DNA from: Candidatus Woesearchaeota archaeon
Lineage (GTDB): Archaea; Nanobdellota; Nanobdellia; UBA10117; ARS21
Direction: 5' to 3'
Assembly (NCBI GenBank): GCA_038128845.1
Contig: JAYPKL010000003.1
Span: 1 to 55,920 of the forward strand
DNA length: 55,920 nt
Shown piece by piece: positions 830-49,652 of this stretch. The position numbers and the translations under genes were made by a program. The notes under the pieces are model-generated. The model was given only the letters and a program-made list of their open reading frames with translations, made no database searches and was not told the DNA's origin. Numbering within the stretch: position 1 is the stretch's first letter; each line of letters opens with the position of its first letter.

Positions 830-903
830 TGCACCCAGAGGGATTTGAACCCGCGACCCCCTGCTTACAAGGCAGGTGCTCTACCGAACTGAGCTATGGA
901 TGC
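830..903 (-). tRNA. tRNA-Thr(TGT)
   Basis: Cloverleaf GCATCCA...TGGGTGC-A; anticodon arm CCTGC-CT TGT AA-GCAGG; T-loop TTCAAAT; one C-T mismatch in T-stem. Confidence 0.95.
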
Positions 904-942
904 ATGAATTCTCATTTTTATAGATATTTTTAAAAGTTTCGA

Positions 943-3447: not shown

Positions 3448-3490
3448 GAGCACATTTCACCTCCGAAGTGCCATACTTCATTATGTGCTC
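3448..3490 (+). promoter_or_regulatory. structured 5' leader (8-bp closing stem plus inner hairpin)
   Basis: GAGCACAT(3448-3455) pairs with ATGTGCTC(3483-3490); inner GAAGT-GCCAT-ACTTC hairpin; begins 29 nt after TTTAAAAA at 3419. Confidence 0.6.
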
Positions 3491-3499
3491 TTATTTAAG

Positions 3500-20233: not shown

Positions 20234-20935
20234 ATGGATTATTTAGTTTCAGCATTTTATATGATTCAACCTGAAGAAGAGAATAAAAAATATGATCTTA
20301 TCAATGTTAATAATCAAAACTTATTTCAAACAAAAAAAGGAAATTCTTATACTCCTGAAGATACTTATGAGTTTATTGGTTTTGTTGACGGTATAAATTT
20401 TAATAATTCAATATATGAAAGTATTTCAGACAGTTTAACCGAAGGTATAAGAGTTAGATCAGGATTACATAAATTTTTTGGTAAAAATGATTGGACAATA
20501 GAAGATATAATTAATTCTTCAGAAATTCCAATTCAAATTAAAGATAGAATGAAAACAAAATTTGATTCAAAAATCTTAGATACTTATTTAATTAGAAAAA
20601 GAGTTTCAGAATTTGAAAATCAAATATTTCACGATTTTCACGATTCAGAAATTAAAGTAGATGTCAAAGTAGGGTTAAGTTTTCCAATTACAAATGAAGA
20701 TGAATTAAGAAACTCCATAAATCAAATACAAAACGGAGATTTTGATTTAATAAATGCATTTGAAAGGAAATACATGAGAGGATTTAATTCGGGTTTGGCT
20801 ACTTTTGTAAATTTTATTTCACCGGAAGATAAAATAATTCCAGTTAAAGATGAATTAATTTCTTATTATAATAATACAAATTTAAAACCAGGTTTTACGA
20901 TGGACGATATAATTCTAAAATTAGAAAAAGCCTGA
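20234..20935 (+). CDS. hypothetical protein
   Basis: 233-aa ORF, no recognised motif. Confidence 0.6.
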   Translation: MDYLVSAFYMIQPEEENKKYDLINVNNQNLFQTKKGNSYTPEDTYEFIGFVDGINFNNSIYESISDSLTEGIRVRSGLHKFFGKNDWTIEDIINSSEIPIQIKDRMKTKFDSKILDTYLIRKRVSEFENQIFHDFHDSEIKVDVKVGLSFPITNEDELRNSINQIQNGDFDLINAFERKYMRGFNSGLATFVNFISPEDKIIPVKDELISYYNNTNLKPGFTMDDIILKLEKA

Positions 20936-21469
20936 AAATATATCTCCAATAATATATCCTGCACCTGCAGCAATTAATGCTACAATTAAAATTTCTATTC
21001 CAGATTCAACAGCTTTTCGATCAGTATATTTTGATTTAATTGCTCCTGCTAAAAATAATGATAAAATTGTAATAACAATTGACGGAAGAATTCCTGACGT
21101 TTCTGAATAAAACAGAAATGCAATCATTGGCATTAAAGCACCTAACATAACAGATAATCCCATTACAACTGATGAAAAAATTGGACTTTTATTTTCGGCA
21201 TATTCTTTACCAAATTTTCGATCGTCTTCATCAACTTTGAAATAATCCTTTTCTGACTTGACTGAGATATAATTTCCAGAAGTCATTGAAATTGTTTGAG
21301 CAATCATTGTAGAAACTCCCGCCAATAAAATAATATTATTTGGAGACAAAGCTTGAGCCATACCAATTACAACACCCAAATTACCTATTGCACCGTCTTG
21401 GAAACCAAAAATTAATTCTCTTATATTGTCTCTTATACGGTATTTCATGTAACTATATATTTTTTTCAT
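20921..21469 (-). CDS. VIT1/CCC1 family transporter
   Basis: IRELIFGFQDG and SMTSGNYISVKSE motifs, 5 TM. Confidence 0.9.
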   Translation of the reverse strand: MKKIYSYMKYRIRDNIRELIFGFQDGAIGNLGVVIGMAQALSPNNIILLAGVSTMIAQTISMTSGNYISVKSEKDYFKVDEDDRKFGKEYAENKSPIFSSVVMGLSVMLGALMPMIAFLFYSETSGILPSIVITILSLFLAGAIKSKYTDRKAVESGIEILIVALIAAGAGYIIGDIFSGFF

Positions 21470-21477
21470 TTATAATT

Positions 21478-21669
21478 TTATTGTATAATTTTTTGAAATA
21501 TTAAAAAAATTAAAGAAATAATTATCATTGTTGTTATTGGAAAATAAAAATGAAAACTATTTTTTTGAATATATATGTCTCCTGGTAATCTTCCAATAAA
21601 AGTAAGTCTATCATAAAATAATCCAAAAACTAGAATCATAGCGCCAATAAATATTAGAATTTTATTCAT
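21478..21669 (-). CDS. DUF2905 family membrane protein
   Basis: GRLPGDIYI..FYFPITT signature; start MNKILIF at 21669. Confidence 0.85.
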   Translation of the reverse strand: MNKILIFIGAMILVFGLFYDRLTFIGRLPGDIYIQKNSFHFYFPITTMIIISLIFLIFQKIIQ

Positions 21670-23398
21670 CGGTAATTTCACCATATAATCTTTCTGCTTC
21701 ATTTAATAATTGATTAATTTGTTCTAGACCATCATTCCAAAATTTTTCTGAATAAATATCTATGTTCATTTCTGAAAATAAATCTTTTGGAGATTTAGAC
21801 GTACCAGCGGATAAAAATTTTTTGACTTTAGATATATTAGATTTATCTTGATCAACTAAATTCTGCATACCTTTTGAAATTAAAAGACCAGACGCATATG
21901 AATAAACATAAAATCGTCTTCTGAAATGAGACCAATATATCCACCAATTTTCATATCCTTCCATTTCCACAGAATTACCGCAATATGCGCTCATATTTTT
22001 CTTAAAAATATCACCTATTTCTTTAGAAGATAAATGTTTATTTTTCCTAAAAGAATCATGAACTTCTTTTTCAAAATTATATCCTGCAATTTGTCTATGA
22101 ATTGTTGATATTTCATCAGATATTTTTTGCATAATTAAAAGAAATTTAGTTTTATTATCAACGTTATTAATTAATTCTCTAAAAACAAAATCTTCAAAAA
22201 ATGTTGAAGCAACTTCTGCAGTAGAAGTTAATGTACCAAAATAGATTTCATCTTGTGCTTTTCTTGATAACTCGTTATTTATTCCATGACCCACTTCGTG
22301 AGCCAAGGTTTTCACATCTCTTATTGTATCCGTATGATTTAACATTATATATGTTGGAAGATTTTTTGTAAAGTGAACACAGAATGCGCCTCCTCTTTTT
22401 CCCTTTTTAGGAAATACATCAAATCTATTTTTTTCAAATAATTCAAATATTTCTAAAAATTCTTTATCTAAATTTGATAAAACTTTTTTAACAATTTTTT
22501 TTGACTCTTCCCAATTAAAATTTTTATTTATTTTTCCAACAGGAAATGTACGATCATAATATTGCAACTTGTGTTTTACAATTTTACTCTTTAAATCATA
22601 AAATCTTCGAGATAATTCAAAATTTTTAGTTACCGTTTTCGTTAAAATTTCTATAAATTTTTTATCAATATCATCACCAATATGACGAGAATGATCGGGA
22701 TATTCATATCCTCGTAATTTGTCAATCACTTCATAATGACTCAATAGTGCATTAAATTCATGTTCTGAAATTTTTTCATATTTTGATAATATTTTATTTA
22801 TTTTTTCTGCGGCCAAATCTCTAACTTCTTTATTTTCTGAAATTGTTTGAGATATTAATTCTTCAAAAGAATGCTCAGTGTCATTAATTATTTGTGTTTC
22901 TGAAGATATTAATTCAGAAACCATATTTTTCCATCTTGAGTATGATTGTTCATTCATTAAAGATATAATTTTTTCTTCTTTATCGCTTAAAATAAATTTT
23001 TCATTTTCAAATATTTTGTTTATAAAATGTAAATACTTATTATTATTTGTAGAAGTAAGTATTGAAATAATATTATTTTTATCTAATTTTGCAATTGATT
23101 TTCTATAAAAATTTATTTTATTAAATTGCTCTATCGTAAAGTCTTGAATTTCTTTATATTTTGATTTTATTTCATTATCTGACTGGTTTAATTGAGATTT
23201 TAACCAGTAATAATAGCCTTCTTCTCCGCCATAAGAATAATTTGTTAATATATTTTCATATTCATTTAGACTTGAAATTAAATTATCTTCATTCAAATTT
23301 TTATATTTATTAGAAAATTCTTCTATATCGTTTTGCATTGATTTTCTTTTACTTGGAAATTCATCAAAATTTGCCCAATTGTATGTCCATTTTTCCAT
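21662..23398 (-). CDS. pepF: oligoendopeptidase F (M3B)
   Basis: GKRGGAF, LAHEVGH zinc motif, AEVASTFFE, FYVYSYA. Confidence 0.93.
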   Translation of the reverse strand: MEKWTYNWANFDEFPSKRKSMQNDIEEFSNKYKNLNEDNLISSLNEYENILTNYSYGGEEGYYYWLKSQLNQSDNEIKSKYKEIQDFTIEQFNKINFYRKSIAKLDKNNIISILTSTNNNKYLHFINKIFENEKFILSDKEEKIISLMNEQSYSRWKNMVSELISSETQIINDTEHSFEELISQTISENKEVRDLAAEKINKILSKYEKISEHEFNALLSHYEVIDKLRGYEYPDHSRHIGDDIDKKFIEILTKTVTKNFELSRRFYDLKSKIVKHKLQYYDRTFPVGKINKNFNWEESKKIVKKVLSNLDKEFLEIFELFEKNRFDVFPKKGKRGGAFCVHFTKNLPTYIMLNHTDTIRDVKTLAHEVGHGINNELSRKAQDEIYFGTLTSTAEVASTFFEDFVFRELINNVDNKTKFLLIMQKISDEISTIHRQIAGYNFEKEVHDSFRKNKHLSSKEIGDIFKKNMSAYCGNSVEMEGYENWWIYWSHFRRRFYVYSYASGLLISKGMQNLVDQDKSNISKVKKFLSAGTSKSPKDLFSEMNIDIYSEKFWNDGLEQINQLLNEAERLYGEITDE

Positions 23399-23484
23399 TA
23401 TTCTTAGTATTTACATATTTTTTTAAATATTTTCAAGAAACATGCAATTTATAAATTAGAAAAAGTACCTATTTTTCATACAAT

Positions 23485-24414
23485 ATGAAAGAAATTGTAG
23501 ATCATTTCCCGATAGGAAATTATATTGAACACAAAAAATTATCGGGCGGTAAGACAAGTGATACTTATTTAATAACTACTGACATCGGTAAATTTGTATT
23601 ACAGCAGTTAAATGAAATTTATGACGAATCAATGATTCGGGATCATGTAGAACTATATTTTTTAATTTCTGATAAAATAATGATACCGGAATGTGTTAAT
23701 ACTAGAGAAAATAAGTATGTACTTGAATATGATGGTAAATATTACAGAGTAATGAAGAATATTGAAGCTGATAAAAATCCGGTTTTAAATAATAAAAAAA
23801 TAAAAAATATGTCTGAAGTTATTATGAAGTTTCATAATCTTACAGAAAATGTAACAAAATTAAGATATAATGGACTAAAAATACACGACAGAACCAGAAT
23901 TAAAAATAAATTAATATCTATAAAAGAAGAACATGAAAAAACAGAAAAATGGAAAATTTACGAAGATATTTATGATTATTTATTTTCAGAGATACAAAAA
24001 TATAAGCTTCCTTCTGAAAAACAATTAATTCATGGCGACATGAAATTTAATAATTTTTTATTTAAGAAAGATAAAGTTGTTGGACTGGTAGATATTGCAA
24101 GTTTAATGATCAGAAGTAAGTATTATGATATAGGCGATTTTTTAAGAAATATATCTAATGCAGATGGTTTATTTGATATTAAAAAATTTAATTACGGTTT
24201 AAATTGTTTTGAAGATATAAATTACGGATTTGCTATTTATGCTACAAAGTTAATTGGTTTAGAATTATGTTCTCGTTATTTGATCGATATTTTTGAACTC
24301 AAACATTTTAAATTTGATAATCAAAAATTTAATGATTTGGAAGAAAGTAATTCATCGAGCTTAAAGAGACATTTAAAATTTTATATGACAATGAATGAAA
24401 TGTTACCAAATTAA
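23485..24414 (+). CDS. aminoglycoside phosphotransferase/choline kinase-like small-molecule kinase
   Basis: Brenner motif IHGDMKFNNFLF followed by VGLVD. Confidence 0.8.
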   Translation: MKEIVDHFPIGNYIEHKKLSGGKTSDTYLITTDIGKFVLQQLNEIYDESMIRDHVELYFLISDKIMIPECVNTRENKYVLEYDGKYYRVMKNIEADKNPVLNNKKIKNMSEVIMKFHNLTENVTKLRYNGLKIHDRTRIKNKLISIKEEHEKTEKWKIYEDIYDYLFSEIQKYKLPSEKQLIHGDMKFNNFLFKKDKVVGLVDIASLMIRSKYYDIGDFLRNISNADGLFDIKKFNYGLNCFEDINYGFAIYATKLIGLELCSRYLIDIFELKHFKFDNQKFNDLEESNSSSLKRHLKFYMTMNEMLPN

Positions 24415-24415
24415 A

Positions 24416-24487
24416 CGCAGACGGGAGGGATCGAACCTCCGACCTCATGGTTAACAGCCATGCGCTCTACCGCTAAGCTACGTCTGC
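24416..24487 (-). tRNA. tRNA-Asn(GTT)
   Basis: GCAGACG/CGTCTGC acceptor; CATGG-CT GTT AA-CCATG. Confidence 0.95.
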
Positions 24488-24527
24488 CTAGGTTTTTTTT
24501 ATTATTTCTTTTTTTAAATGTTTTTAA

Positions 24528-25835
24528 TTATGGACTAAATCGTGTTGGAGTTCTAGGAAATGCAATACATTCTTTTACTGATTCTGCTCCGGTTAACCAC
24601 ATAACTAGTCTTTCTATACCCATACCAAATCCAGAATGAGGTATTTTACCATATCTGCTTGAATCAAAATAAAATTCATATTTTTTAGGATCCTCGCCTG
24701 CATCTTTAAGTCTCTTCTTCACATCTTCAAAATCAAGACTTCTTTCAGATGATCCAACTAATTCTCCAATACCTGGTATTAGTAAATCTGAAGCAAGAAC
24801 TTGATCAGGATCTTTTTTATCTCGCTTCATATAGAATGCCTTAAGAGATGTCGGATAATGTGTAATAAATAAAGGAATTCTTCTTTTATCAACTAAATAT
24901 TTTTCTTCAGTTGTTCCCAAATCGTCTCCAAATTTAACTTTATATCCTGCTTTCTGCAATTCTTTTACTGCATCTCGATATTTCAATCTTGCAAATTTTG
25001 GCAATTTTTCAAAATATTTAATGTCTGATCCCAATAATTTCATTTCTTCAGAATACTCTTTTGCTATTTTTTTACAAATAAATCTAACACATTCTTCTAT
25101 AGTTAATAATAATTCAGGAAATTCTTGCCATGCAGTTTCTGCTTCAGCATGCCAATATTCTGTTAAGTGCCTTGAAGTCATAGATTTATCTGCCCTAAAG
25201 CTAGGTGCCATTGTATATATTTTTTCTAAAACTGGCAACATCATTTCAGCATATAATTGCCAAGTTTGTGTTAAGTATGCCTTTTTACCAAAATATTTAA
25301 CTTCAAATGTCTCTGCTCCACTCTCTCCGGGAGTAGGTGTAAAACTAGGAGATTGGTGCTCATGATAACCTTTACTTCTAAAATATTCATGAAAACCGGA
25401 AATAACTCCAGATCTTATTTTTAGAATTGCCTGTTGTCTAGGATCTCGAATTGATAAATGTCTTATATCTCTTAAGAATTCTGCCGATGTATCTCTCGCT
25501 ATAGGCCATGTCTCAGCTAAACCAACTATTGATATTTTTGAAACAATTAATTCATATCCTTCAGGTGCTCTAGGATCCTTTTTTACAACACCTTCAATAA
25601 AACAAGAAGATTCCGTAGTTATTTCTTCAGCAATTTTCCAGTATTTAGAATCAGAAGATGTAACTGTTTGAATATGACCTGTAGAATCTCTTAAAACTAA
25701 AAATATTTTTTGTTTTAAAGATCTTTTTTTTGAAACCCAACCTCTAATTTTAACTTTTTTTGACGAATATTGAGTTGATTTTATTTCAGAAATAGTTTTG
25801 GCTAAGTACTTTTTACTGTAGATTGGGATAACCAC
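24528..25835 (-). CDS. asnS: asparaginyl-tRNA synthetase
   Basis: OB-fold RGWV..LRD, motif 2 FRADKS..RHLTEYWH, motif 3 PHSGFGMGIERL; adjacent tRNA-Asn. Confidence 0.9.
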   Translation of the reverse strand: MVIPIYSKKYLAKTISEIKSTQYSSKKVKIRGWVSKKRSLKQKIFLVLRDSTGHIQTVTSSDSKYWKIAEEITTESSCFIEGVVKKDPRAPEGYELIVSKISIVGLAETWPIARDTSAEFLRDIRHLSIRDPRQQAILKIRSGVISGFHEYFRSKGYHEHQSPSFTPTPGESGAETFEVKYFGKKAYLTQTWQLYAEMMLPVLEKIYTMAPSFRADKSMTSRHLTEYWHAEAETAWQEFPELLLTIEECVRFICKKIAKEYSEEMKLLGSDIKYFEKLPKFARLKYRDAVKELQKAGYKVKFGDDLGTTEEKYLVDKRRIPLFITHYPTSLKAFYMKRDKKDPDQVLASDLLIPGIGELVGSSERSLDFEDVKKRLKDAGEDPKKYEFYFDSSRYGKIPHSGFGMGIERLVMWLTGAESVKECIAFPRTPTRFSP

Positions 25836-25886
25836 CCTTTACCATTATTCTTTTATCTAAAATTCATTTATAAGTCTTTCTCAGAA

Positions 25887-26315
25887 TTAAAATTCTTTTA
25901 GAACGATAAGTGTTTTTGTATTTTGAACTCCCTTTATTCCTCTAACTTGTTCCATAATAAAATTATGAAGTTCTTCAACATTGTTTACTCTAATTCTAAT
26001 AATTATATCGTCATCCCCGGTCACAATATATGCTCCATAAACTTCATTCATTTTTGTTAATCTTGCACAAATTTCTTCCTGATCACCAAGAGAATTTACT
26101 TGAATTAGTAAGATTGAATTAATATATTTGTATAATTTGTTATAATTCAAATTAACTGTGTAATTTTTAATTACACCATTAGATTCTAGCTTTTTTATTC
26201 TATTATGAATTGTCGTAATAGGTATATTTGTTAGCTTAGAAATGTCTTGAGTAGTATATTTAGCATTTTTCTTTAAATGTTCTAATATGGAAATATCCTT
26301 CTTATCAAGTTCCAT
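25887..26315 (-). CDS. Lrp/AsnC family transcriptional regulator
   Basis: LD..D..IL..L wHTH, RIKKLESNGVI, RAM domain VTGDDD; start at ATG 26315, 29 nt below TTTATATA. Confidence 0.93.
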   Translation of the reverse strand: MELDKKDISILEHLKKNAKYTTQDISKLTNIPITTIHNRIKKLESNGVIKNYTVNLNYNKLYKYINSILLIQVNSLGDQEEICARLTKMNEVYGAYIVTGDDDIIIRIRVNNVEELHNFIMEQVRGIKGVQNTKTLIVLKEF

Positions 26316-26316
26316 T

Positions 26317-26333
26317 TTGGAATATATTTCCAA
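26317..26333. promoter_or_regulatory. palindromic operator candidate between the lrp TATA box and start
   Basis: TTGGAA-TATAT-TTCCAA perfect 6-5-6 inverted repeat. Confidence 0.55.
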
Positions 26334-26428
26334 CATTATATAAATTTATTGAAAATATATAGTATTTTTTTCCATTTTTTGGTAAGTATTTTAATAAACT
26401 ACAAAAAACATATCAATTTGTGATTAAA

Positions 26429-26548
26429 ATGTATATAGAAAATTTAAACCATTTGGAATGTAACTCGTGCAATGGGGCACATACAGCTGTTATGACTAGT
26501 CGTTTTGATGAAGTCTATTGTAATTCCTGTGGTAATATCTTACTATAA
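26429..26548 (+). CDS. 39-aa TFIIB-type zinc-ribbon microprotein (not in ORF track)
   Basis: MYIENLNHLECNSCNGAHTAVMTSRFDEVYCNSCGNILL, two CxxC motifs. Confidence 0.65.
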   Translation: MYIENLNHLECNSCNGAHTAVMTSRFDEVYCNSCGNILL

Positions 26549-26568
26549 GTCACCGGTTTTACTTAGCC

Positions 26569-26588
26569 AGCGGGTCTAATGACCCGCT
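26569..26588. terminator. GC-rich hairpin between convergent micro-ORFs
   Basis: AGCGGGTC-TAAT-GACCCGCT perfect 8-bp stem. Confidence 0.55.
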
Positions 26589-26595
26589 CCCTCTA

Positions 26596-26776
26596 TTAAT
26601 TATTATGATGTTGAGTCCAATGAGCACCTTGATGGGAAGGACAGTAATATTTTGTTTGATCATTTGATTCTTTAGGTTCATGCGCCATACACCTATCGCA
26701 ATCAGATTGTACAACCTCTATCTTCACATTCCAAACACATTTTAGTTAACGTTTCATCACAAAATTCGCATTTCAT
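26596..26776 (-). pseudogene. frameshifted Cys/His-rich microprotein
   Basis: MKCEFCDETLTKMCLECEDRGCTI* continues in the +1 frame as ..SDCDRCMAH..YYCPSHQGAHWTQHHNN*; span is 181 nt = 60 codons + 1. Confidence 0.45.
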
Positions 26777-26824
26777 AATTAGGATATTATTCTTTCTATA
26801 AAATTATTGTATAAACGGATAGTG

Positions 26825-26846
26825 CAACGGAGAAAAACCTCCGTTG
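26825..26846 (-). terminator. hairpin 10 nt downstream of tRNA-Arg
   Basis: CAACGGAG-AAAAAC-CTCCGTTG 8-bp stem. Confidence 0.5.
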
Positions 26847-26856
26847 AATCTCCTCA

Positions 26857-26930
26857 CGGGCCTACGAGGATTTGAACCCCGACCAACCGGGCCGAAACCG
26901 GTTACACTATCCAAGTTATGCTATAGGCCC
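26857..26930 (-). tRNA. tRNA-Arg(TCG)
   Basis: GGGCCTA/TAGGCCC acceptor; ACCGG-TT TCG GC-CCGGT. Confidence 0.94.
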
Positions 26931-26981
26931 GTATTAAAAATTAATCGAACTATTTTAAAAATATATTCATTAAAAGATTAT

Positions 26982-27401
26982 ATGAAAAATAAAATAGTAC
27001 TTATTTTACACATATTATCTTTACTTGGAATTTTATTTTCCGGAATAACTATTTATGATCATTATAATACCGAACCTTCAAGTGTTTGTTTAACTGGAGG
27101 AGGATGCGATACTGCAAATAATAGTGTTTATTCTGAATTTATGGGTATTCCTGTTGGTTTCTTCGGTATACTTTGGTTTATTTTATTTTCACTTTCAATT
27201 AGCTTTAATGAACCTGAAATAACAACTCTTTTGATTTTAGGCGGAGTAACTGTTGTAGCTTATTTTATTTTTGTAGAATTATATATTCTTAGAGTTATTT
27301 GTTCAACCTGTACTTTTATACATGCAATTGTTTATTTACAATCTTTAATCGTGCTTGCTCCCTTTATGTCCAGAACCTTTAAGAGAAATAATCGGAAGTA
27401 A
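26982..27401 (+). CDS. vitamin K epoxide reductase (VKOR) family protein
   Basis: C..GGGCD...S.YS..MGIPV motif and CSTC redox pair; start moved to ATG 26982, outside tRNA-Arg. Confidence 0.9.
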   Translation: MKNKIVLILHILSLLGILFSGITIYDHYNTEPSSVCLTGGGCDTANNSVYSEFMGIPVGFFGILWFILFSLSISFNEPEITTLLILGGVTVVAYFIFVELYILRVICSTCTFIHAIVYLQSLIVLAPFMSRTFKRNNRK

Positions 27402-28508
27402 ATGTTTTACAATATCTACACTATCTTTTTGAGCATTCATAACTCTTGAAATATTTTTATAAGCGTCGGGTGCTTCGTCTAGAGTACCTTTTTCAATAGT
27501 ACCTGTAATTCCTTTCATATCTTCTTTAAATTTTTTCATAGTTATTTTTTTCTTTGCTTCAGTTCTTGATAATTTTCTTCCGGCACCATGAGACGAACTA
27601 AATAAAAATTCCGGATTACCTTTTCCAATTACTAAATAAGAACCATCTCTCATATTTGCAGGTATAACTCCTCGTTCTCCCTTTTCAGCGGGTGTTGCAC
27701 CTTTTCTATGAATATAATTTTTACCATGAGGAACTGCATGATTATGGTTTTTATTTGTCCAGATCTCATATGATAATTTTTGATTCAATATTTGTTCGAT
27801 AGAATAAATTGTTTTGTAAATAATTTCTTTTCTATTTAATAATGCAAATTCTAAACCAAATTCTAAAACATTTAGATATTCTTTTCCAACAACTGAATTT
27901 ATTTTAATTGGATGTGTTGCTTCAAATTCTTTATCAGAACCTGAACTTTTTTTCATATATTTTTCTGCAACTTTATATCCTATACCTCTTGAACCAGAGT
28001 GTACTATAATCCAAAATTCATTATTTGAATAACATAGTTCTAAAAAATGATTTCCGCTTCCCAGAGTTCCAAGATGAGAAAGAGATTTATTTTTTATAAA
28101 TTTGTAAATATCTTTATCATGAGCTCCTTTTTCAAATTTTTCTAAAAGATTATTTAATTCTTTTTTTGTTTTATCAGAAATATTTTTTGGATGATTTAAC
28201 ATACCCGTTCCCATAGGAACATTTTTCATAATTTCATCATAAATTTTTTTTGTGTTATTTTTAATTTTAGAAAGTACTTCTTCATTAATTTTTACAGCAG
28301 TCATTCCACATCCAATATCATATCCTACCCACGACGGTACAATGTAATTTTTAGTTTCTAAAACAGATCCAATAGGTGCAACATAACCAGAATGTGCATC
28401 AGGCATAAGTGCAGCATTTACAACAAAATCTTGATTAACACAATGTTCAAATTGTTCTTCAGTTGCTTTATCTATGTCAATTGCATAATTGTAAATTTTC
28501 TTTTTCAT
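27345..28508 (-). CDS. rtcB: RtcB RNA ligase, short form
   Basis: PDAH, DIGCG, LGTLGSGNHF, HSGSRG, HRKGAT, SHGAGR, DEAP motifs. Confidence 0.95.
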   Translation of the reverse strand: MKKKIYNYAIDIDKATEEQFEHCVNQDFVVNAALMPDAHSGYVAPIGSVLETKNYIVPSWVGYDIGCGMTAVKINEEVLSKIKNNTKKIYDEIMKNVPMGTGMLNHPKNISDKTKKELNNLLEKFEKGAHDKDIYKFIKNKSLSHLGTLGSGNHFLELCYSNNEFWIIVHSGSRGIGYKVAEKYMKKSSGSDKEFEATHPIKINSVVGKEYLNVLEFGLEFALLNRKEIIYKTIYSIEQILNQKLSYEIWTNKNHNHAVPHGKNYIHRKGATPAEKGERGVIPANMRDGSYLVIGKGNPEFLFSSSHGAGRKLSRTEAKKKITMKKFKEDMKGITGTIEKGTLDEAPDAYKNISRVMNAQKDSVDIVKHLLPIISLKGSGHKGSKHD

Positions 28509-29206
28509 TCTTCCAAAGGAACCTCTATAACTAATATTTCTGAATTTTTATCTATATTAATTTCTATATCTTCAGTTTCTGAAATTTCTATTGAATCTCT
28601 TCTATTCAAAATTTCATTATTTATTTTAACAGAGCCTTCAACTATCATTAAAAAAATTCCTTTATCTTTTTCAATTTTCAATATTTCTTTTTTATCTTCT
28701 TTAAACTTACCTAAATATATTTTTGCATCCTGATGAATGTAAAGATTATCATCATTGTTATTTCCCGAAACTATTTTGTTTAACTTATTATCCGCAAGAT
28801 TTAGTTTTTTTGTTTCGTGTCTTGGTACTGCATTAAATTTTCTTGTTTTTATCCATATTTGAAATAATTTTACTATATTATTTGTCCGATTATATTCCGA
28901 ATGAACAATTCCAGATCCCGCAGACATTACTTGAATTTCTCCGGATTTAATATCTCCTTCAGATCCAGTACTATCTTTATGAGATAATATTCCTTCAGTA
29001 GGTATTGTAATTATTTCCATATTATCGTGTTGATGTGCCCCAAAACCACTATTTGCAGCAATTTCATCATCGTTTAATACAATTAATTTTCCAAAACCCA
29101 TTCTTTTCGGATTATAGTAATTTGCAAAGCTAAAACTAAATCTAGAGTTTAACCACGAATGATTCGCAATTCCTCTTTCATCAGATCTATGTATTAATTT
29201 ATTCAT
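28505..29206 (-). CDS. pirin family protein
   Basis: RFSFSFA.YY, H.H.NMEI, MSAGSGIVHSE, FQIW motifs. Confidence 0.93.
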   Translation of the reverse strand: MNKLIHRSDERGIANHSWLNSRFSFSFANYYNPKRMGFGKLIVLNDDEIAANSGFGAHQHDNMEIITIPTEGILSHKDSTGSEGDIKSGEIQVMSAGSGIVHSEYNRTNNIVKLFQIWIKTRKFNAVPRHETKKLNLADNKLNKIVSGNNNDDNLYIHQDAKIYLGKFKEDKKEILKIEKDKGIFLMIVEGSVKINNEILNRRDSIEISETEDIEINIDKNSEILVIEVPLEE

Positions 29207-29273
29207 ATTGAAATGTATAATTTTAGTTTATAAGAGTTAAGTTTTTAAATAAAAAATAAAGTCTCACTTTATT

Positions 29274-29348
29274 GCCCCTTTAGTGTAGTCCGGTCAATCA
29301 TCCATGGTTCTCAGCCGTGTGACGCGGGTTCAAATCCCGCAAGGGGCG
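29274..29348 (+). tRNA. tRNA-Glu(CTC)
   Basis: GCCCCTT/AAGGGGC acceptor; CATGG-TT CTC AG-CCGTG; T-arm GCGGG-TTCAAAT-CCCGC. Confidence 0.95.
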
Positions 29349-29441
29349 TACTATTATTAGTGACATTTAGTGTAGTATATTTAGAATTTTTAAAAAAAGT
29401 CTAATAAATAAATTTATAAACCAATTATTGAAGGCTAAATA

Positions 29442-30251
29442 ATGGCATTATATCATCCACACGAGAAAGAACAGGTTAGAGCTATAAGATATACATTAGA
29501 AACAGCTCCGCAAATTCAAAAACAGCTTAAAGAAAAATTTGGATACGGAGAAAATATGTTCTTTGATTTAGATTTAATAGAATATAGAATTCATAATTCT
29601 CGTAAAAAAATTGCCGAAGAGTTAGATGTTAAGTCTCTTTATGGTTTAAATGAGAATATTGCTGAAGGCGCAGTAAGTTATGCTTTTAGAGGTTACGATA
29701 GTGAAGAGTTTTTACCCGAATATAAGTTCGAAGGATTGTTTGGAGAACAATTGAATGATCTAATTGAAAAGAATAGAGGTAGTATAACTTGTCGGATTTA
29801 TGGTCGGATTATGCGTCGGAAAAGTGCTGAAGCACAAGGTAAACATATTTGGAGTCTAGATGAATTAATAAGTTTACATGAAATTCGTGAAGAATCAATT
29901 GGTAAAGGTCGTTATAAGACAACACCATGTATGACTTATGTTGCTGAAAAATTTAATGAAAGACACGGAACAGAACTAACTGAAAAAGCATTAATTATGG
30001 CATATTCACAAAACAAACATCGTCTTTCTGAAGCCGGTGTTGAAATAGCTGAACCTTTTTGGAGTCTAGATAAGTTAGTAAGTTTACATGAAATTCGTGA
30101 AGAATCAATTGGTAAGGGTATTAAAAAAACTCAACCATGTATGACTTATGTTACTGAAAAATTTAATGAACGACACGGAACAGACTTTACTAAAAAAGAC
30201 TTAACAGGGATGTATTCACTCAACAAACATCGTCTTTCTGAAGAAGAATAA
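29442..30251 (+). CDS. modular repeat protein: N-terminal HTH-like domain plus 2 x 70-aa HTH/Myb-like modules
   Basis: 210-bp units start at 29850 and 30060 (WSLD..SLHEIREES.GKG..PC..YV.EKFNE.HGT..AYS.NK); paralog at 44627. Confidence 0.8.
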   Translation: MALYHPHEKEQVRAIRYTLETAPQIQKQLKEKFGYGENMFFDLDLIEYRIHNSRKKIAEELDVKSLYGLNENIAEGAVSYAFRGYDSEEFLPEYKFEGLFGEQLNDLIEKNRGSITCRIYGRIMRRKSAEAQGKHIWSLDELISLHEIREESIGKGRYKTTPCMTYVAEKFNERHGTELTEKALIMAYSQNKHRLSEAGVEIAEPFWSLDKLVSLHEIREESIGKGIKKTQPCMTYVTEKFNERHGTDFTKKDLTGMYSLNKHRLSEEE

Positions 30252-30330
30252 ATTTATTTAAACTATTACTAGTTTATTAAATCAACAGGTAAAATACTAA
30301 ATATATTTACCAATTGTCACTAACAATTCT

Positions 30331-30348
30331 AATCACGCAAGGGGCGTA
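30331..30348 (+). repeat. second copy of tRNA-Glu 3' end (att-like)
   Basis: 17/18 identity to 29333-29350. Confidence 0.85.
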
Positions 30349-30388
30349 TAATAACAATTATTATAAAGTTTGCAAACTAAATAAATTT

Positions 30389-30553
30389 ATGAAAGAAAAA
30401 TATAATACACTTGAAGAATTAATGGGAAATTTTTCATTTGATAAAAGTATTATGGAAAAACAGTTAGAGAATACTCATATGAATATCTTTGAAGTTTATA
30501 CGGGCGGCAATAGTCATATGAATATCTTTGAAGTTTATACGGGCGGTAACTGA
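30389..30553 (+). CDS. 54-aa microprotein ending in a 13-aa tandem duplication
   Basis: ATG 30389 about 29 nt after ATTATAAA; 39-bp units at 30470 and 30509 (NxHMNIFEVYTGG). Confidence 0.5.
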   Translation: MKEKYNTLEELMGNFSFDKSIMEKQLENTHMNIFEVYTGGNSHMNIFEVYTGGN

Positions 30554-30588
30554 ATCCTACTTTAAATATTAGTTTTTAATAATAAATT

Positions 30589-30616
30589 TAATTTTAGTTG
30601 AACATATTTGGATCTA
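30589..30616. repeat. 28-bp dispersed direct repeat, copy 1
   Basis: taattttagttgaacatatttRgatcta, 27/28 identical to 32312-32339. Confidence 0.85.
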
Positions 30617-30762
30617 GAAATGATACCCGTGCAGCTTGCTGCAATACAGCCCGAGATTTTCCTTTCCCATCTTAATATGTATATATAACGTAGAATCATA
30701 ACACATCTAAACAGTGTTCGTTCTTTCCCAAAATGAGATACGAAAGGGCAATTGTCACCTAG

Positions 30763-30779
30763 AATCTCGCAAGGGGCGT
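30763..30779 (+). repeat. third copy of tRNA-Glu 3' end (att-like)
   Basis: AATCTCGCAAGGGGCGT, 16/17 identity; preceded by CAATTGTCAC like the second copy. Confidence 0.85.
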
Positions 30780-30792
30780 GCAATGAGATATC

Positions 30793-31359
30793 CTATCTTT
30801 TTTTACTCAAAATATTTCCTTCTAATGGATTTTTATATGAACTTTTTGGTTTTCGGCTTTCGATTAATTTTCTCATATACTTAATTAATTTAGTGTCTAA
30901 AATCGCTCCATCAAAATTCGCATTCACTACTTCATCAAGAATCGCCCACCTAAGATCTACTTTTTTAAGATTTACTCCATCAAGATTCGCTCTTCTAAGA
31001 TTTGCCTTTCTAAGGATCGCACCTTCAAGATGAACTCCTCTAAGATCCACTTCCTTAAGATTTGTATACCGCATATTTGATGCTCCAAGATCTGCTCCCC
31101 GAATATTCACCCCTCGAAGATCAGCTCCCTGAAGATTCGCTCCCCAAAGATTTGCCTTTCTAAGATCCGCTCCTTCAAGATTCGCACCCCGAAGATCCGC
31201 TAACCCAAGATCCGATCCCCGAAGATCCGCTCCTTCAAGATTCGCTCCCCGAAGATTCGCTCCCCAAAGATACGCACCCCGAAGATACGCACCCCGAAGA
31301 TACGCTCCTTTTAGTGTTTTTAAAGAATATTCTTTTAATATATCTGCTATTGTTTTCAT
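30793..31359 (-). CDS. pentapeptide repeat protein
   Basis: About 25 consecutive A(D/N/Y)LxG-type pentapeptides, 15-bp DNA periodicity. Confidence 0.95.
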   Translation of the reverse strand: MKTIADILKEYSLKTLKGAYLRGAYLRGAYLWGANLRGANLEGADLRGSDLGLADLRGANLEGADLRKANLWGANLQGADLRGVNIRGADLGASNMRYTNLKEVDLRGVHLEGAILRKANLRRANLDGVNLKKVDLRWAILDEVVNANFDGAILDTKLIKYMRKLIESRKPKSSYKNPLEGNILSKKR

Positions 31360-31461: not shown

Positions 31462-31503
31462 ATGTGCGGAACTTGTGGTTGTGACGATAAAGACGGAAAA
31501 TAA
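31462..31503 (+). CDS. 13-aa CxxCGC peptide MCGTCGCDDKDGK (not in ORF track)
   Basis: GC-rich ORF in extremely AT-rich DNA; TTTATATT 28 nt upstream; followed by a trailer shared with the repeat-protein gene. Confidence 0.45.
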   Translation: MCGTCGCDDKDGK

Positions 31504-31642
31504 GTTTATTTAAACTATTACTATTTTAGTTAACTATCAATGGTTAAGAAGAAAGATAATTATACCATAGTCAGCGAATTAATTATTAAAAATAAAATTC
31601 AAATAATATCTTATTACTAACCTAACTATGACTAGGAGAATT

Positions 31643-32308
31643 ATGAGAGGGAAACTATATCTTTCAGGCGGCGGAGATGAAAATCAAACTTATAATGCAG
31701 ATAAACAAATATTTGCCGATGTTAAAAAAATTCTTTATATACCTCTTGCATGGGAAGGAGACAAATCATACGCGTTATGCAAAAAATGGTTTGAAAATAT
31801 GATTTCAAAACATAAGCCGATTTCATATGATATGATTATTACAGGTACTACTGACAGAAATTTGAATAATTATGATTTAATATATATCGGAGGCGGCAAC
31901 ACATTTAAGCTACTTAAAGAATTAAGAGCTTCCGACTTGAGTAAAAAAATAATTGATTTCCTAAATAATGGAGGTAGCGTGTACGGAGGAAGTGCTGGTG
32001 CAATTATATGGGGAAAGCATATTGATCAAAAATACAGAAAAAAAATTATATCTAGCAGTACAGATGCAGATAAAAACAAAGTAAAACAAAGTAACACTTC
32101 TGGTTTCAACTTAGTTAAAGGATATGATATACAATGCCATTTTATAGATGACGAATTGAATGAATATATTGAATATTCAAAAAATAAGTCTGTCAAAATA
32201 CTTGCAATACCTGAAGAGAGCGTCCTAGAATTTGACGGTAAAAATTTTAGAGTTTTTGGCACTAAAAAAGTAACAATCATAGATAAAAAAAATATTTCAA
32301 AAATATAA
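31643..32308 (+). CDS. peptidase E (S51)-like class I glutamine-amidotransferase-fold protein
   Basis: LSGGG, IYIGGGNTF, GGSAGA nucleophile elbow; AGGAG SD before ATG 31643. Confidence 0.88.
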   Translation: MRGKLYLSGGGDENQTYNADKQIFADVKKILYIPLAWEGDKSYALCKKWFENMISKHKPISYDMIITGTTDRNLNNYDLIYIGGGNTFKLLKELRASDLSKKIIDFLNNGGSVYGGSAGAIIWGKHIDQKYRKKIISSSTDADKNKVKQSNTSGFNLVKGYDIQCHFIDDELNEYIEYSKNKSVKILAIPEESVLEFDGKNFRVFGTKKVTIIDKKNISKI

Positions 32309-32458
32309 ATCTAATTTTAGTTGAACATATTTAGATCTATTTAGATATTTTAAATAACGATATTTCCAGTCATAAGGATTAATGCTAGGATAATAAACTT
32401 GTTTTTGCTCAGGTCTAACTGAATAATATTTATTATATTTATATTCTAGATATTTCAT
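32297..32458 (-). CDS. 53-aa Tyr-rich micro-ORF containing the second 28-bp repeat (not in ORF track)
   Basis: MKYLEYKYNKYYSVRPEQKQVYYPSINPYDWKYRYLKYLNRSKYVQLKLDLYF. Confidence 0.35.
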   Translation of the reverse strand: MKYLEYKYNKYYSVRPEQKQVYYPSINPYDWKYRYLKYLNRSKYVQLKLDLYF

Positions 32459-32559
32459 CAATATTTAATATATTATTAATAAAAAATTTCGTTAGTATTT
32501 GTCTTATATTCATTAATCAACAAGATAATTATTTATAAAAATAATTTAAGAAAGATTAT

Positions 32560-33180: not shown

Positions 33181-33966
33181 ATGGTATATGAAAACTTGTT
33201 TCAATATACGCCAATTCAGCATGATTTAATTGCTCAAACACTTACACTTACATATACAATTATGATTGCAGCTCTTCTTTATTTTGCATTTAGTCTAAAA
33301 ACAAATGCTCCAAAATATCGTACATCTGGAATTCTTTCGATAGTTGTTATGACTTCCGCATTTATTATTTTATTTTACCAATCACAAAGCTGGCAAAATG
33401 CTTTTACCTTTAATGCAGAAATAGGAAAATATGTTTTAGATTCCGGAGCAGATTTATTCTCAAATGGATATAGATATCTTAATTGGTTGATTGATGTACC
33501 TATGTTATTATTTCAAATATTATTCATTGTAAATTTATCACAAAAAGAATTTATCACAAAAAGAAATTGGTTTTTCATTTCAGGTGCAGCAATGATATTA
33601 CTAGGTTATGTTGGTCAATTTTATGAAACAACTAATGTCAACATGTTTATTACACTTGGATTAATTTCAACTGTATTTTTCATTCATATTTTATATTTAA
33701 TTTATGGAATAATTAAAGGAGCAATTAAAGATTTATCAAAGCCGGCTGGAAAAATTATGGCAGGAATTTGGATATTATTTTTATTCTCTTGGACACTCTA
33801 TCCAATCGCATATGCAATGCCAGTATTAGGTTATGGAGAATGGGGAGTTGTTGCAAGACAAATGATTTTTTCAGTAGCAGATGTATTGTCTAAAGTAATT
33901 TATGGAATTTTACTTATGAGAGTTGGGCAATTAAGAAGTAAAGAAGACGGATATAAATATAATTAA
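33181..33966 (+). CDS. type-1 microbial rhodopsin, NDQ motif (KR2-like light-driven Na+ pump)
   Basis: 7 TM; helix C NGYRYLNWLIDVPMLLFQILF (R98, N101, D105, Q112); helix G ARQ..ADVLSKVIYG (D234, retinal K238). Confidence 0.93.
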   Translation: MVYENLFQYTPIQHDLIAQTLTLTYTIMIAALLYFAFSLKTNAPKYRTSGILSIVVMTSAFIILFYQSQSWQNAFTFNAEIGKYVLDSGADLFSNGYRYLNWLIDVPMLLFQILFIVNLSQKEFITKRNWFFISGAAMILLGYVGQFYETTNVNMFITLGLISTVFFIHILYLIYGIIKGAIKDLSKPAGKIMAGIWILFLFSWTLYPIAYAMPVLGYGEWGVVARQMIFSVADVLSKVIYGILLMRVGQLRSKEDGYKYN

Positions 33967-44029: not shown

Positions 44030-44430
44030 GACAGCCAAAATCTATGTCCGAATTAGTATATTTTACTCGTAGAAAAGACGAATTTGGATTAGTTAAATTA
44101 TGGGTATTTAGAGAAAATTGCCCTAGTTGTAATAATGCTCAAATGGGTAAACCAGTTGATCCAAAAACAAAAAAAGTAAAATCAAGAGCCAAAGAATATG
44201 TTTGTCCAGAATGCAATCATATTATTGAAAAAGAAGAATATGAAGATTCCTTGGATGCAAATATTGAATACACTTGTCCAGAAGGACATTCTCATGAAAA
44301 AATAATGCCTTTCAAAAGACAAAAAATATCTATAAAAGATCCTAAAACTGGTAAAAATAAGAGAAAACTTGGAATAATGTTTAATTGTGAAACTTGCGAT
44401 TTTGAAATAAAAGTTCCAAAATTAAAATAA
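44026..44430 (+). CDS. multi-zinc-ribbon protein
   Basis: LVYFTRR, CPSC, CPEC, CPEGH, CETC; start at ATG 44026. Confidence 0.75.
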   Translation: MRQPKSMSELVYFTRRKDEFGLVKLWVFRENCPSCNNAQMGKPVDPKTKKVKSRAKEYVCPECNHIIEKEEYEDSLDANIEYTCPEGHSHEKIMPFKRQKISIKDPKTGKNKRKLGIMFNCETCDFEIKVPKLK

Positions 44431-44466
44431 ATAACTTTTTAATATAAATTTAATAAAAAATTTAAT

Positions 44467-44540
44467 GCCTCGGTAGCTCAGTATGGTAGAGCGCTGCATT
44501 GGTAATGCAGAGGTCGCGAGTTCAAATCCCGCCTGGGGCA
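44467..44540 (+). tRNA. tRNA-Thr(GGT)
   Basis: GCCTCGG/CTGGGGC acceptor; CTGCA-TT GGT AA-TGCAG; A52-C62 mismatch in T-stem. Confidence 0.93.
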
Positions 44541-44549
44541 TCCAACGCA

Positions 44550-44626
44550 TAGTTTCATTTAGTGTAGTATATTTGGAATTTTTTAAAAAAAGTAAAATTT
44601 ATAAACCAATTATTGAAGGCTAAATT
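44550..44626 (+). repeat. leader/promoter homologous to 29358-29441
   Basis: TAGT..CATTTAGTGTAGTATATTT.GAATTTTT..AAAAAAAGT..AAATTTATAAACCAATTATTGAAGGCTAAAT shared by both loci. Confidence 0.9.
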
Positions 44627-45898: not shown

Positions 45899-45958
45899 GT
45901 ATATTAATTATGCTTTTTTAAGACATTAAAGTTTAATAATATAATTAATAAATGTTAT

Positions 45959-49549: not shown

Positions 49550-49652
49550 CCCTCTGTAGCTCAATCTGGTAGAGCGCGCGACTGTAGTTGGATACTGGAA
49601 TAAAATTCCAGCAGAAATCGCGAGGTTGCTGGTTCGATTCCGGCCGGAGGGA
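49550..49652 (+). tRNA. tRNA-Tyr(GTA) with 29-nt intron at 37/38 (49588-49616)
   Basis: C1-G72 pair; BHB: CTGT/GCAG 4-bp helix, bulges AG|T and AA|A, outer TGGA/TCCA. Confidence 0.93.

Follow-up and report, generated by a model that had tools for sequence, protein, structure and literature searches.

The DNA analyzed here, referred to as the window, is a metagenomic contig of 55.9 kb that was examined over its whole length. Cluster mates at an identity of at least 90% are named Candidatus Woesearchaeota, in line with the DPANN-type archaeon that an earlier note on this DNA had proposed as the host. On the plus strand of the window, an intact tRNA-Glu gene is present, and its final 16 nt recur twice further downstream, the hallmark of elements that target tRNA genes. 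These copies bound two short units, termed cassette 1 and cassette 2. The features of the window are listed below, where numbers preceded by L denote genomes, contigs or loci used for comparison.

29274-29348, plus strand: tRNA-Glu(CTC), the putative target gene (attB/attL role; Rfam RF00005, 52 bits; ARAGORN 29273-29349)
29334-29349, plus strand: core copy 1, ATCCCGCAAGGGGCGT; the identity to the 98.8% identical L057 ends exactly at 29349
29350-30347, plus strand: cassette 1, 998 bp; precisely absent in L056 and in L057, present in L007
29357-29365, plus strand: left sub-terminal inverted repeat TTAGTGACA, the perfect 9-bp inverse of 30315-30323
29442-30251, plus strand: family gene of cassette 1, 269 aa
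30315-30323, plus strand: right sub-terminal inverted repeat TGTCACTAA, within CAATTGTCAC (30311-30320)
30332-30347, plus strand: core copy 2, ATCACGCAAGGGGCGT; homology to L007 stops here, at window position 30353
30348-30779, plus strand: cassette 2, 432 bp; directly after tRNA-Glu in L056, absent in L057 and L007
30764-30779, plus strand: core copy 3, ATCTCGCAAGGGGCGT, then GCAATGAGAT
30793-31359, minus strand: pentapeptide-repeat gene (Pfam PF00805, 1e-48), also in L057
31492-31533, plus strand: relic of a family-gene cassette, comprising its 3' end and 3' flank, with 83% identity to 30240-30281 (repeat family D10)
31515-32292 (approximate), plus strand: segment with an S51 peptidase gene (31628-32308), absent in L056 and L007
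32287-32339, plus strand: start of the conserved distal flank, where synteny with L007, L018, L021 and L056 resumes (repeat family D5)
44545-45898, plus strand: paralogous family-gene segment after tRNA-Thr(GGT) (44466-44544)

The sequence ATCNCGCAAGGGGCGT occurs three times in the window, always on the plus strand (29334-29349, 30332-30347 and 30764-30779) and at spacings of 998 and 432 bp (repeat family D8), and no core match was obtained in 100 dinucleotide shuffles. The first copy comprises the 3' strand of both the T stem and the acceptor stem, the discriminator base and one extra T. A single base varies between the three copies (C, A and T), and it corresponds to tRNA position 62 when counted on the tRNA as placed by Rfam (29274-29348). 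Both the recurrence of the tRNA 3' end at these spacings and the single mismatch had been described in the earlier note and were borne out. For annotation purposes, the partial tRNA-Glu copies are best treated as att sites and not as pseudogenes.

Cassette 1 consists of a left end, a promoter-like leader, the family gene, its 3' region, a right arm and core copy 2. In cassette 2, an ORF of 54 aa (30389-30553) with an internal 39-nt tandem duplication (30470-30547) precedes 38 nt that duplicate distal-flank sequence (30578-30615), after which come CAATTGTCAC as the right arm (30749-30758) and core copy 3. Thus, both units are bounded by cores, and their contents are one orphan gene and one 54-aa ORF, respectively. 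An 11-nt match between the D-arm of tRNA-Glu and the cassette leader, TTTAGTGTAGT, was judged compatible with chance.

The flank that starts after core copy 3 also follows the tRNA in the empty allele described below, where the pentapeptide-repeat gene adjoins tRNA-Glu and encodes 562 aa. Further downstream, the relic at 31492-31533 also matches L007 (10995-11034) and is comparable with the 3' region of L023, which suggests an earlier cassette that may since have decayed. The segment with the S51 peptidase gene is a second indel of the variable region and has no bounding core. The distal flank begins with the 3' end of a minus-strand ORF that encodes 54 aa (32297-32461). At the tRNA-Thr gene, the paralogous ORF (44627-45898) encodes 423 aa with four C-terminal repeats; neither a right-end core of this segment nor a repeat of the tRNA-Thr 3' end downstream of it (45899-45960) was found.

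As the earlier note had stated, both downstream cores are preceded by the arm motif CAATTGTCAC. It is present in the 55.9 kb exactly twice, at 30311 and 30749, in each case just 5' of a core copy. With one mismatch allowed, four occurrences were found as compared to 2.9 expected, which is not above chance frequency. The inverse arm reported after the tRNA is real and a better match than described, since it forms a perfect 9-bp inverted repeat; the proposed 7 nt between the core and this left arm were confirmed, whereas the distance from the right arm to the 12-nt core is 12 nt and not 8 nt. Taken alone, the TGTCACTAA/TTAGTGACA inverted repeat is marginal (P about 0.08 by shuffling), as is each inverted repeat by itself (P 0.04-0.08). 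No matching inverted arm was detected at the left end of cassette 2. At the matching positions of L007, the inverted repeat reads TAGTTTCA on the left and TGAAACTA on the right. The arms of the window and of L007 differ by matching changes, so that both arms changed in step, which, in a comparison of only two homologous cassettes whose core itself is a conserved 12-nt tRNA sequence, would imply a continuing constraint on the cassette ends. The junctions of hypothetical circles are palindromic (z-scores of -3.8 and -2.7); for cassette 1, the junction would read ...CAATTGTCACTAACAATTCTAATCACGCAAGGGGCGT joined to ACTATTATTAGTGACATTTAG.

Alleles of the tRNA-Glu locus and homologous loci

The earlier note had suggested a comparison of the locus across related MAGs, and this revealed that it is not invariant. 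The genome L057 is 98.8% identical to the window over positions 20389-29349, and the identity stops exactly at 29349. The tRNA is followed there by GCAATGGAGAT and the pentapeptide gene (junction sequence ...GGGGCGTGCAATGAGAT), i.e. the site is empty. In L056, a contig of about 96% identity, tRNA-Glu is directly followed by cassette 2 and core 3 (junction sequence ...TCCCGCAAGGGGCGTATAATAACAATT), and cassette 1 alone is missing. Genomes that are 96-99% identical thus hold an allelic series of no (L057), one (L056) and two cassettes (window), with presence and absence falling precisely at the repeats. Since near-identical genomes contain none or only one of the cassettes, these represent discrete insertions.

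The two bases after the core are GC in L056 as opposed to AT after core copy 2 of the window. Such a difference is not predicted if cassette 1 simply inserted in one step into an allele of the L056 type, and a one-step model for the exact crossover point does not fit.

The order tRNA-Glu, family gene and core 2 recurs in L007, a polished contig of 448 kb from an independent assembly that is syntenic and 83-90% identical to the window; homology breaks at core 2 and resumes at 32299. Likewise, cassette 2 together with core 3 recurs in three Logan assemblies and one NCBI MAG. The population is represented in the public runs SRR26337526, SRR26337528 and SRR26337569. The Logan contig L001 stops exactly at the tRNA end GGGGCGTA, consistent with a structural branch point in this sample. 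Many assemblies break at the family gene, which carries long internal repeats, and the cassette arrangement explains why they do so at these loci. Among the GTDB genomes only four family-gene loci were found, all of them in Woesearchaeota MAGs, and three of the four touch a contig end. Such breaks and the metagenomic origin of the contig might suggest that the repeats arose by coincidence or through chimeric assembly. This is hardly credible, however, as not one of the 100 shuffles produced an extra core, and the recurrence of both cassettes in independent assemblies effectively refutes it.

In L007 and L018, the left end CCAACGCATAGTTTCATTTAGTG comes after GGGGCGT of tRNA-Glu, and the same left end opens the paralogous segment of the window after GGGGCAT of tRNA-Thr. 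In L021, the family cassette is the second one in an array, where another unit of ~1 kb and the core copy AGCAGGGGGCGT precede it. At tRNA-Thr of L023, a family cassette ends in CAATTGAAAC...CTCTCGCAAGGGGCGT, a Glu-type core, indicating that core and cassette move together. Of 40 family-gene loci, about 20 lie within about 450 bp of a tRNA gene, with six isoacceptors represented (Glu, Thr, His, Asn, Asp and Leu), and many marine contigs carry the family gene beside tRNA genes. At some loci the tRNA lies on the opposite strand (tRNA-His), and others, e.g. L008 and L016, have no nearby tRNA gene. The right-end core is also missing at the family genes of L018, L019, L022 and L020/L021.

Integrase genes and a candidate helper element

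In agreement with the earlier note, no integrase was found in the window, neither by Pfam analysis of 30 ORFs nor by tblastn with a related integrase; as the window is the whole contig, this result covers all of its 55.9 kb. An integrase beside an att site was found only in the relatives L026/L047 and L051. L026 and L047, which originate from other samples than the window organism, are ~9-10 kb in size, 97% identical and circularly permuted to each other, and contain neither cellular genes nor flanks. Two family genes are followed by the cores CAGGGGGCGT, CCCGTTGGCGT and AAGGGGCGT, the last of them adjoining CCAAAC, and then by the gene of a tyrosine-type integrase of 441 aa (Phage_integrase, 4.5e-23). 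The att region carries the inverted repeat TAATGTCA/TGACATTA and is palindromic in L026 (z-score of -2.9). The gene family, the junction of AAGGGGCGT with CCAA(A)C and an inverted repeat of the (A)ATGTCA/TGACAT type are common to the cassettes and L026/L047. No intermediates between the two were found apart from L031 and L033, in which C-terminal fragments of an integrase adjoin family genes.

An intact homologue of the integrase, P0079 in L051 (44% identity), is located 85 bp 3' of a chromosomal tRNA-Asp gene, with RNA polymerase genes as neighbours. Among viral integrases, the most similar ones belong to archaeal pleomorphic viruses and to a methanogen caudovirus (~27-30% identity). The L026 integrase had no relatives in IMG/VR, and a 493-aa protein of L026 had no match among GenBank phages. 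An element of the L026/L047 type is a plausible partner that could act in trans.

We consider it probable that the cassettes are non-autonomous, att-flanked mini-elements which were added at the tRNA gene by an integrase provided in trans. In this process, the 3' end of tRNA-Glu would serve as a hotspot of site-specific recombination (attB), and the right end of each cassette carries a copy of this 3' end with the invariant core CGCAAGGGGCGT. On circularization of the unit, the sub-terminal inverted repeats would come to lie on both sides of the core. The core of the circle would then be recombined with that of the tRNA by a tyrosine integrase supplied in trans, the likely source being an element of ~9-10 kb that is plasmid- or virus-like and of the L026/L047 type. 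A crossover at or just after GGGGCRT would leave the tRNA intact. Each new unit would land beside the tRNA and push older units outward, so that cassette 2 would be the older of the two. The mini-elements resemble products of deletion from the integrase-bearing element that may have kept both att arms and one family gene. The integrase family of L026 presumably acts on the cassette sites, and the units presumably excise as circles; precise cassette loss could also occur via homologous recombination or slippage between the 16-22-bp repeats. The earlier proposal of non-autonomous cassettes stacked by a trans-acting recombinase thus stands with respect to core-bounded units that have no recombinase of their own, the alleles with no, one and two cassettes and the inverted repeats, whereas mobilization in trans is what we infer from them.

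Alternatively, the cassettes could be inert scars of successive integrase-bearing insertions at tRNA-Glu that were mostly deleted and are immobile now, with the three alleles arising through homologous recombination, slippage or whole-allele exchange between strains. Loss of the integrase after integration and scattered partial tRNA copies are commonly reported (PMC8371274; bioRxiv 10.1101/2020.12.28.424599), and the further relic at 31492-31533, the integrase fragments beside family genes in L031 and L033 and the right-end core missing for many family genes are consistent with such decay. We nevertheless regard this as rather unlikely. One unit of ~1 kb, defined by a homologous left end, 3' region and right arm, is found both at tRNA-Glu and at tRNA-Thr and in varying array positions, and a Glu-type core is present at a tRNA-Thr locus, which argues that the shortened unit moved after its shortening. 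The change in step of the arms between the window and L007 likewise points to a continuing constraint on the cassette ends.

The family gene and its product

A total of 72 homologues of the cassette 1 protein were identified; an exact-protein look-up of the cassette 1 product itself found it not on record. The protein of 269 aa combines a conserved N-terminal domain of ~110 aa, in which the alignment reveals invariant Tyr and Arg residues, with two C-terminal repeats of 70 aa. It could not be assigned to a family in Pfam and PHROGs, a profile search against PDB sequences gave at best E = 0.43, and Foldseek against the PDB yielded no match below E = 0.6. The AF2 model consists entirely of helices (mean pLDDT of 75), and its fold weakly resembles Reb1 and POU/homeodomain proteins. 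For the paralogue, a Pfam Myb/SANT match below threshold was obtained. The family protein presumably binds DNA and might possibly act as an accessory or architectural factor. In nearly all loci, the gene is preceded by a conserved upstream region, TTTAAACCAATTATT...ATG, which looks like a promoter.

The family protein might instead be the mobility enzyme itself, i.e. a new recombinase or homing-type nuclease for tRNA 3' ends, so that cassette 1 would be autonomous and cassette 2 and other units would ride along. Its gene is the only one of cassette 1, lies beside six tRNA species and adjoins the att site on L026, and the invariant Tyr and Arg residues of the N-terminal domain as well as the probably DNA-binding repeats (sub-threshold Myb/SANT match, weak fold likeness to Reb1 and POU/homeodomain proteins) would be compatible with such an activity. 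However, no match to a recombinase or nuclease family was found on the level of sequence or fold (Pfam, PHROGs, PDB), the model is that of a small all-helical protein without a recognisable catalytic fold, L026/L047 carry a bona fide integrase alongside their family genes, and many copies are located away from tRNA genes. An enzymatic role in mobility is thus improbable. As no LAGLIDADG, GIY-YIG, HNH or PD-(D/E)XK domain was detected in Pfam, PHROGs, PDB sequences or by Foldseek, a homing endonuclease in particular was rejected, and the interpretation of the GRKGG...T.EERSE repeats as NUMOD3 motifs found no support. Overall, the cassette 1 gene and its homologues make up a new orphan protein family that is widespread and linked to hotspots near tRNA genes.

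Implications and comparison with known systems

DPANN archaea have tiny genomes, and gene gain and loss in these organisms are little understood. The series of alleles with no, one and two cassettes, the ~1-kb unit found at two tRNAs and the candidate helper element together offer a concrete and testable route of gene flux in marine Woesearchaeota. They also suggest that integrative elements can shrink to MITE-like miniatures which depend on an integrase in trans. A broader reading, which is tentative and in our opinion possible without being likely, is that marine Woesearchaeota possess a cassette-exchange system. In such a system, tRNA 3' ends would take the role of attI, single-gene units with palindromic, attC-like and tRNA-mimicking ends would be captured, stacked and moved among tRNA-Glu, tRNA-Thr and other tRNAs by the tyrosine integrase of a separate small plasmid or virus, and the family protein would be a dedicated DNA-binding accessory factor. 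If true, archaea would possess a functional counterpart of integrons that is based on tRNA genes.

The term integron-like array, used in the earlier note, holds as an analogy only. In both systems, each unit contains one small ORF in the same orientation and its own terminal site with palindromic potential, new units seem to enter proximally, and the recombinase is encoded outside the cassette. However, a tRNA gene forms the start of the array, neither intI nor attI nor Pc adjoins it, no integrase was found on the contig, and the cassette site is a conserved tRNA 3' end, whereas attC is defined by structure. In contrast to the promoterless cassettes of integrons, the family gene is preceded in nearly all loci by a conserved upstream region of its own.

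Archaeal plasmids and viruses that integrate into tRNA genes include those with integrases that stay intact on integration, as opposed to the SSV type (PMC8371274). In self-partitioning elements of the SSV type, attP is located within the int ORF and the gene is split on integration. This type was rejected for L026/L047, as the cores of L026 are located at least 64 bp upstream of the int start codon and P0079 is unsplit beside tRNA-Asp. With the intact-integrase elements, L026/L047 share an att site outside of the integrase ORF, and P0079 is intact immediately 3' of tRNA-Asp. In contrast to these elements, L026 has an att region with three stacked tRNA-like cores, and the window contains integrase-less derivatives only. 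DPANN, Woesearchaeota and Nanoarchaeota are absent from the text of this 2021 review of archaeal tyrosine recombinases (PMC8371274).

The tycheposons of Prochlorococcus are bacterial elements of PICI-like size (10-20 kb) with their own integrase and replication module (bioRxiv 10.1101/2020.12.28.424599), whereas the units described here are smaller than 1 kb and have no integrase. Both are found in marine hosts with streamlined genomes and, on the reading proposed here, are tyrosine-recombinase elements at tRNA genes in which incoming elements push older ones outward. In both cases, only a partial tRNA copy separates neighbouring elements, and degenerate remnants and extra partial tRNA copies occur.

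Closer is the category of elements that insert site-specifically and in tandem at a tRNA gene, together with their CIME-like derivatives, which are flanked by att sites and have no integrase. CIMEs are integrase-less, att-flanked cis-mobilizable elements of Firmicutes (PMC5704250). The cassettes differ from them in being archaeal (DPANN/Woesearchaeota), in their size of 0.4-1 kb with one small gene and its own upstream region, and in the occurrence of one unit at two tRNA species; no conjugative partner is evident for the cassettes, whose mobilization is putative. As in CIMEs, attL and attR are present in cassettes 1 and 2 and the genes for integration and transfer are lacking. Both kinds of elements have att repeats derived from the 3' end of the target, carry no integration genes, are stacked in tandem at one site and plausibly originated by deletion from an autonomous relative.

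Repeats and alleles at the tRNA-Glu gene

The following features of the window (plus strand) are needed here:
29274-29348, tRNA-Glu(CTC), the target tRNA
29334-29349, 30332-30347 and 30764-30779, cores 1 to 3
29350-30347, cassette 1
30348-30779, cassette 2

Two further copies of the last 16 nt of tRNA-Glu (ATCCCGCAAGGGGCGT) start at 30332 and 30764; only one base varies, and the core-to-core distances are 998 and 432 bp, as the earlier note had claimed; 0 matches were found in 100 shuffles. Its arms were recovered as well. There are exactly two occurrences of the motif CAATTGTCAC in the window, each a short way upstream of one of the two downstream cores, and the left arm TTAGTGACA (29357-29365), separated from the tRNA core by 7 nt, is perfectly inverted relative to the right arm TGTCACTAA (30315-30323). 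If the two ends are joined as they would be in an excised circle, extended imperfect palindromes centred on the core result (z = -3.8 and -2.7). The significance of each inverted repeat alone is marginal and, because only two homologous cassettes can be compared, palindromes and arm pairs are taken as supporting evidence, short of proof. Pfam scans of 30 ORFs and tblastn with a related integrase gave no integrase in the window, in agreement with the note.

Furthermore, the locus was compared in three independent assemblies of close relatives. L057 (NCBI GCA_038108575.1) is 98.8% identical to the window over 20389-29349 and breaks off exactly at 29349. Past its tRNA-Glu come GCAATGGAGAT and, on the opposite strand, a pentapeptide-repeat gene, and in the window the flank past core 3 is GCAATGAGAT, followed by the pentapeptide gene. 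The flank that lies behind core 3 in the window thus directly adjoins the tRNA in L057, which is therefore an empty site. In L056 (GCA_038110725.1, ~96% identical) the order is tRNA-Glu, cassette 2, core 3 and pentapeptide gene, with cassette 1 precisely missing. With alleles of none, one and (in the window) two cassettes, the cassettes are discrete insertions, as the note had proposed. In the more distant, syntenic L007, a polished contig of 448 kb (83-90% identity to the window), tRNA-Glu is followed by a family gene and core 2; homology to the window stops at core 2 and restarts at 32299. The Logan contig L001 terminates exactly at the tRNA end GGGGCGTA, as would be expected at a putative structural branch of the assembly graph.

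The pentapeptide-repeat gene beside the array encodes 188 aa in the window (30793-31359, minus strand) versus 562 aa in L057 (156-1844), although the L057 flank is 98.8% identical to that of the window. Its DNA has a strict 15-nt period with 19 copies; the product is a fast-changing repeat protein. Cassette 2 contains a 39-nt tandem duplication (30470-30547, 95% identical) within its 54-aa ORF, where Logan contigs break, and a 38-nt copy (30578-30615) of the sequence that opens the conserved distal flank (32299-32339), the copied flank being the 3' end of a 54-aa ORF on the minus strand. The left edge of the S51 indel has a shorter match, TTTTAGTT.AAC (31511-31525). Flank DNA could have been captured by cassette 2 through aberrant excision.

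Probable mobility of the cassette 1 family

Cassette 1 encodes a 269-aa protein of an orphan family with 72 detected members. A 423-aa paralogue directly follows tRNA-Thr(GGT) in the window, and in about 20 of 40 loci the family gene has a tRNA gene (Glu, Thr, His, Asn, Asp or Leu) within ~450 bp. In L007 and L018 the left end CCAACGCATAGTTTCATTTAGTG comes after GGGGCGT of tRNA-Glu; in the window it comes after GGGGCAT of tRNA-Thr. In the L021 array an unrelated unit of ~1 kb and the core copy AGCAGGGGGCGT come first, and the family cassette second. The right end of the cassette at tRNA-Thr in L023 is homologous to those of the window and L007 and terminates in CTCTCGCAAGGGGCGT, a Glu-type core; the core is thus part of the cassette, and crossover would occur at or just past GGGGCRT. 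The sub-terminal arms (TGTCACTAA/TTAGTGACA in the window, TGAAACTA/TAGTTTCA in L007) occupy the same positions but differ in sequence, each arm having changed to match its partner. Shared left end, varied array position, travelling core and matched arms together point to movement of cassette 1 as one unit.

The probable mechanism, in our view, is site-specific integration by a trans-acting integrase; each new unit would enter beside the tRNA. In the main rival reading, less likely by some distance, the cassettes are inert scars and recombination between the short repeats produced the indels. Such scars account for the decayed pieces of the region (the relic at 31492-31533, an S51 peptidase indel without a core, family genes without right-end cores), and explain less well the matched arm changes and the presence of one shortened unit beside two tRNA species. 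That the family protein mobilises itself is improbable: its model is all-helical, and a search of Pfam, PHROGs and PDB for a recombinase or nuclease signal in it found none.

At 31463-31533 a 13-codon Cys-rich mini-ORF (MCGTCGCDDKDGK) precedes a stretch 83% identical to the family gene 3' flank. L056 and the end of L057 retain this sequence, which is probably what remains of a third family cassette. The unrelated unit between tRNA-Glu and the family cassette of L021 encodes a 213-aa protein (376-1017, minus strand) with repeated WSWLDDKENLEEN modules, another repeat-rich orphan in a core-bounded unit. At five loci (L014, L027, L037, L048, L050) tRNA-His lies on the opposite strand with the family gene 170 bp off its 5' side, an arrangement for which tRNA 3'-end integration does not account.

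A candidate helper element

L026 and L047, integrase-bearing elements of ~9-10 kb from different samples, are 97% identical and circularly permuted relative to one another; no cellular genes were seen on either. In order, they carry:
a 493-aa gene, only weak AAA match
a DnaA-like ATPase with an excisionase-type HTH
a tandem pair of family genes
three stacked tRNA-3'-like cores: CAGGGGGCGT, Glu-like; CCCGTTGGCGT, which matches the tRNA-Asn 3' end of L034; AAGGGGCGT followed by CCAAAC
an inverted repeat, TAATGTCA/TGACATTA, either side of the last core (fold z = -2.9)
a tyrosine integrase, 441 aa (PF00589, 4.5e-23)

From its position, we would guess at a replication role for the 493-aa product. 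A 44% identical integrase, P0079, is encoded intact 85 bp 3' of tRNA-Asp, beside RNA polymerase genes; this integrase family thus uses tRNA 3' ends and differs from the self-splitting SSV type. The nearest viral relatives (~27-30% identity) belong to archaeal pleomorphic viruses and a methanogen caudovirus. Set beside this element, the mini-cassette resembles a deletion derivative in which one family gene and the two inner att arms survive.

In the L026 att region (6720-6800; the same in L047 at ~1180-1265 and in L036) the cores lie ~30 nt apart, CAGGGGGCGT and AAGGGGCGT being Glu-like and CCCGTTGGCGT Asn-like, and GGCGTTGGA is present twice. The element may have resided at several tRNA sites in turn, or several may be available to it. 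In L031 and L033 a fragment encoding the C-terminal 46 aa of the L026 integrase, with 100% identity, lies amid several family genes and inverted leader copies; these loci look like decaying or rearranged integrated elements.

Host and comparison with known systems

The window (26% G+C) is an archaeal chromosome fragment with genes for RtcB, aCPSF1/FttA, a proteasome subunit, RIO kinase and ribosomal protein S3Ae. At NCBI, cluster mates of its pirin, rhodopsin and aCPSF1 (identity of 90% or more) carry the name Candidatus Woesearchaeota, and the note was therefore right to assign it to a DPANN-type archaeon. The bacteriorhodopsin-like gene (33181-33966, 261 aa, Pfam 1.6e-43), kept in relatives and with cluster mates named rhodopsin, encodes a predicted light-driven pump or sensor. 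A 103-nt tRNA at 49550-49652 (Rfam 54.6 bits), missed by ARAGORN, is probably interrupted by an archaeal intron; the sequence upstream of it is similar to that of tRNA-Thr (44426-44494, 74% over 69 nt). No Pfam match was obtained for the 1082-aa ORF (3485-6733), the 379-aa ORF (9326-10465) and several ORFs of 200-240 aa.

The note's integron-like array is an analogy only: intI, attI and Pc are absent at the array, and a conserved upstream region of its own precedes the family gene, so that we reject an integron identity. Prochlorococcus tycheposons integrate in tandem at tRNAs, with partial tRNA separators, outward-pushed older elements and degenerate remnants (bioRxiv 10.1101/2020.12.28.424599). 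Tandem integration and integrase loss are reported for archaeal elements (PMC8371274), and integrase-less att-flanked CIMEs of Firmicutes also accumulate in tandem arrays (PMC5704250). The present case differs from these in that the host is a DPANN archaeon, the units of the window are tiny (0.4-1 kb, one gene), one unit is found at different tRNA species, and an orphan gene family is involved.
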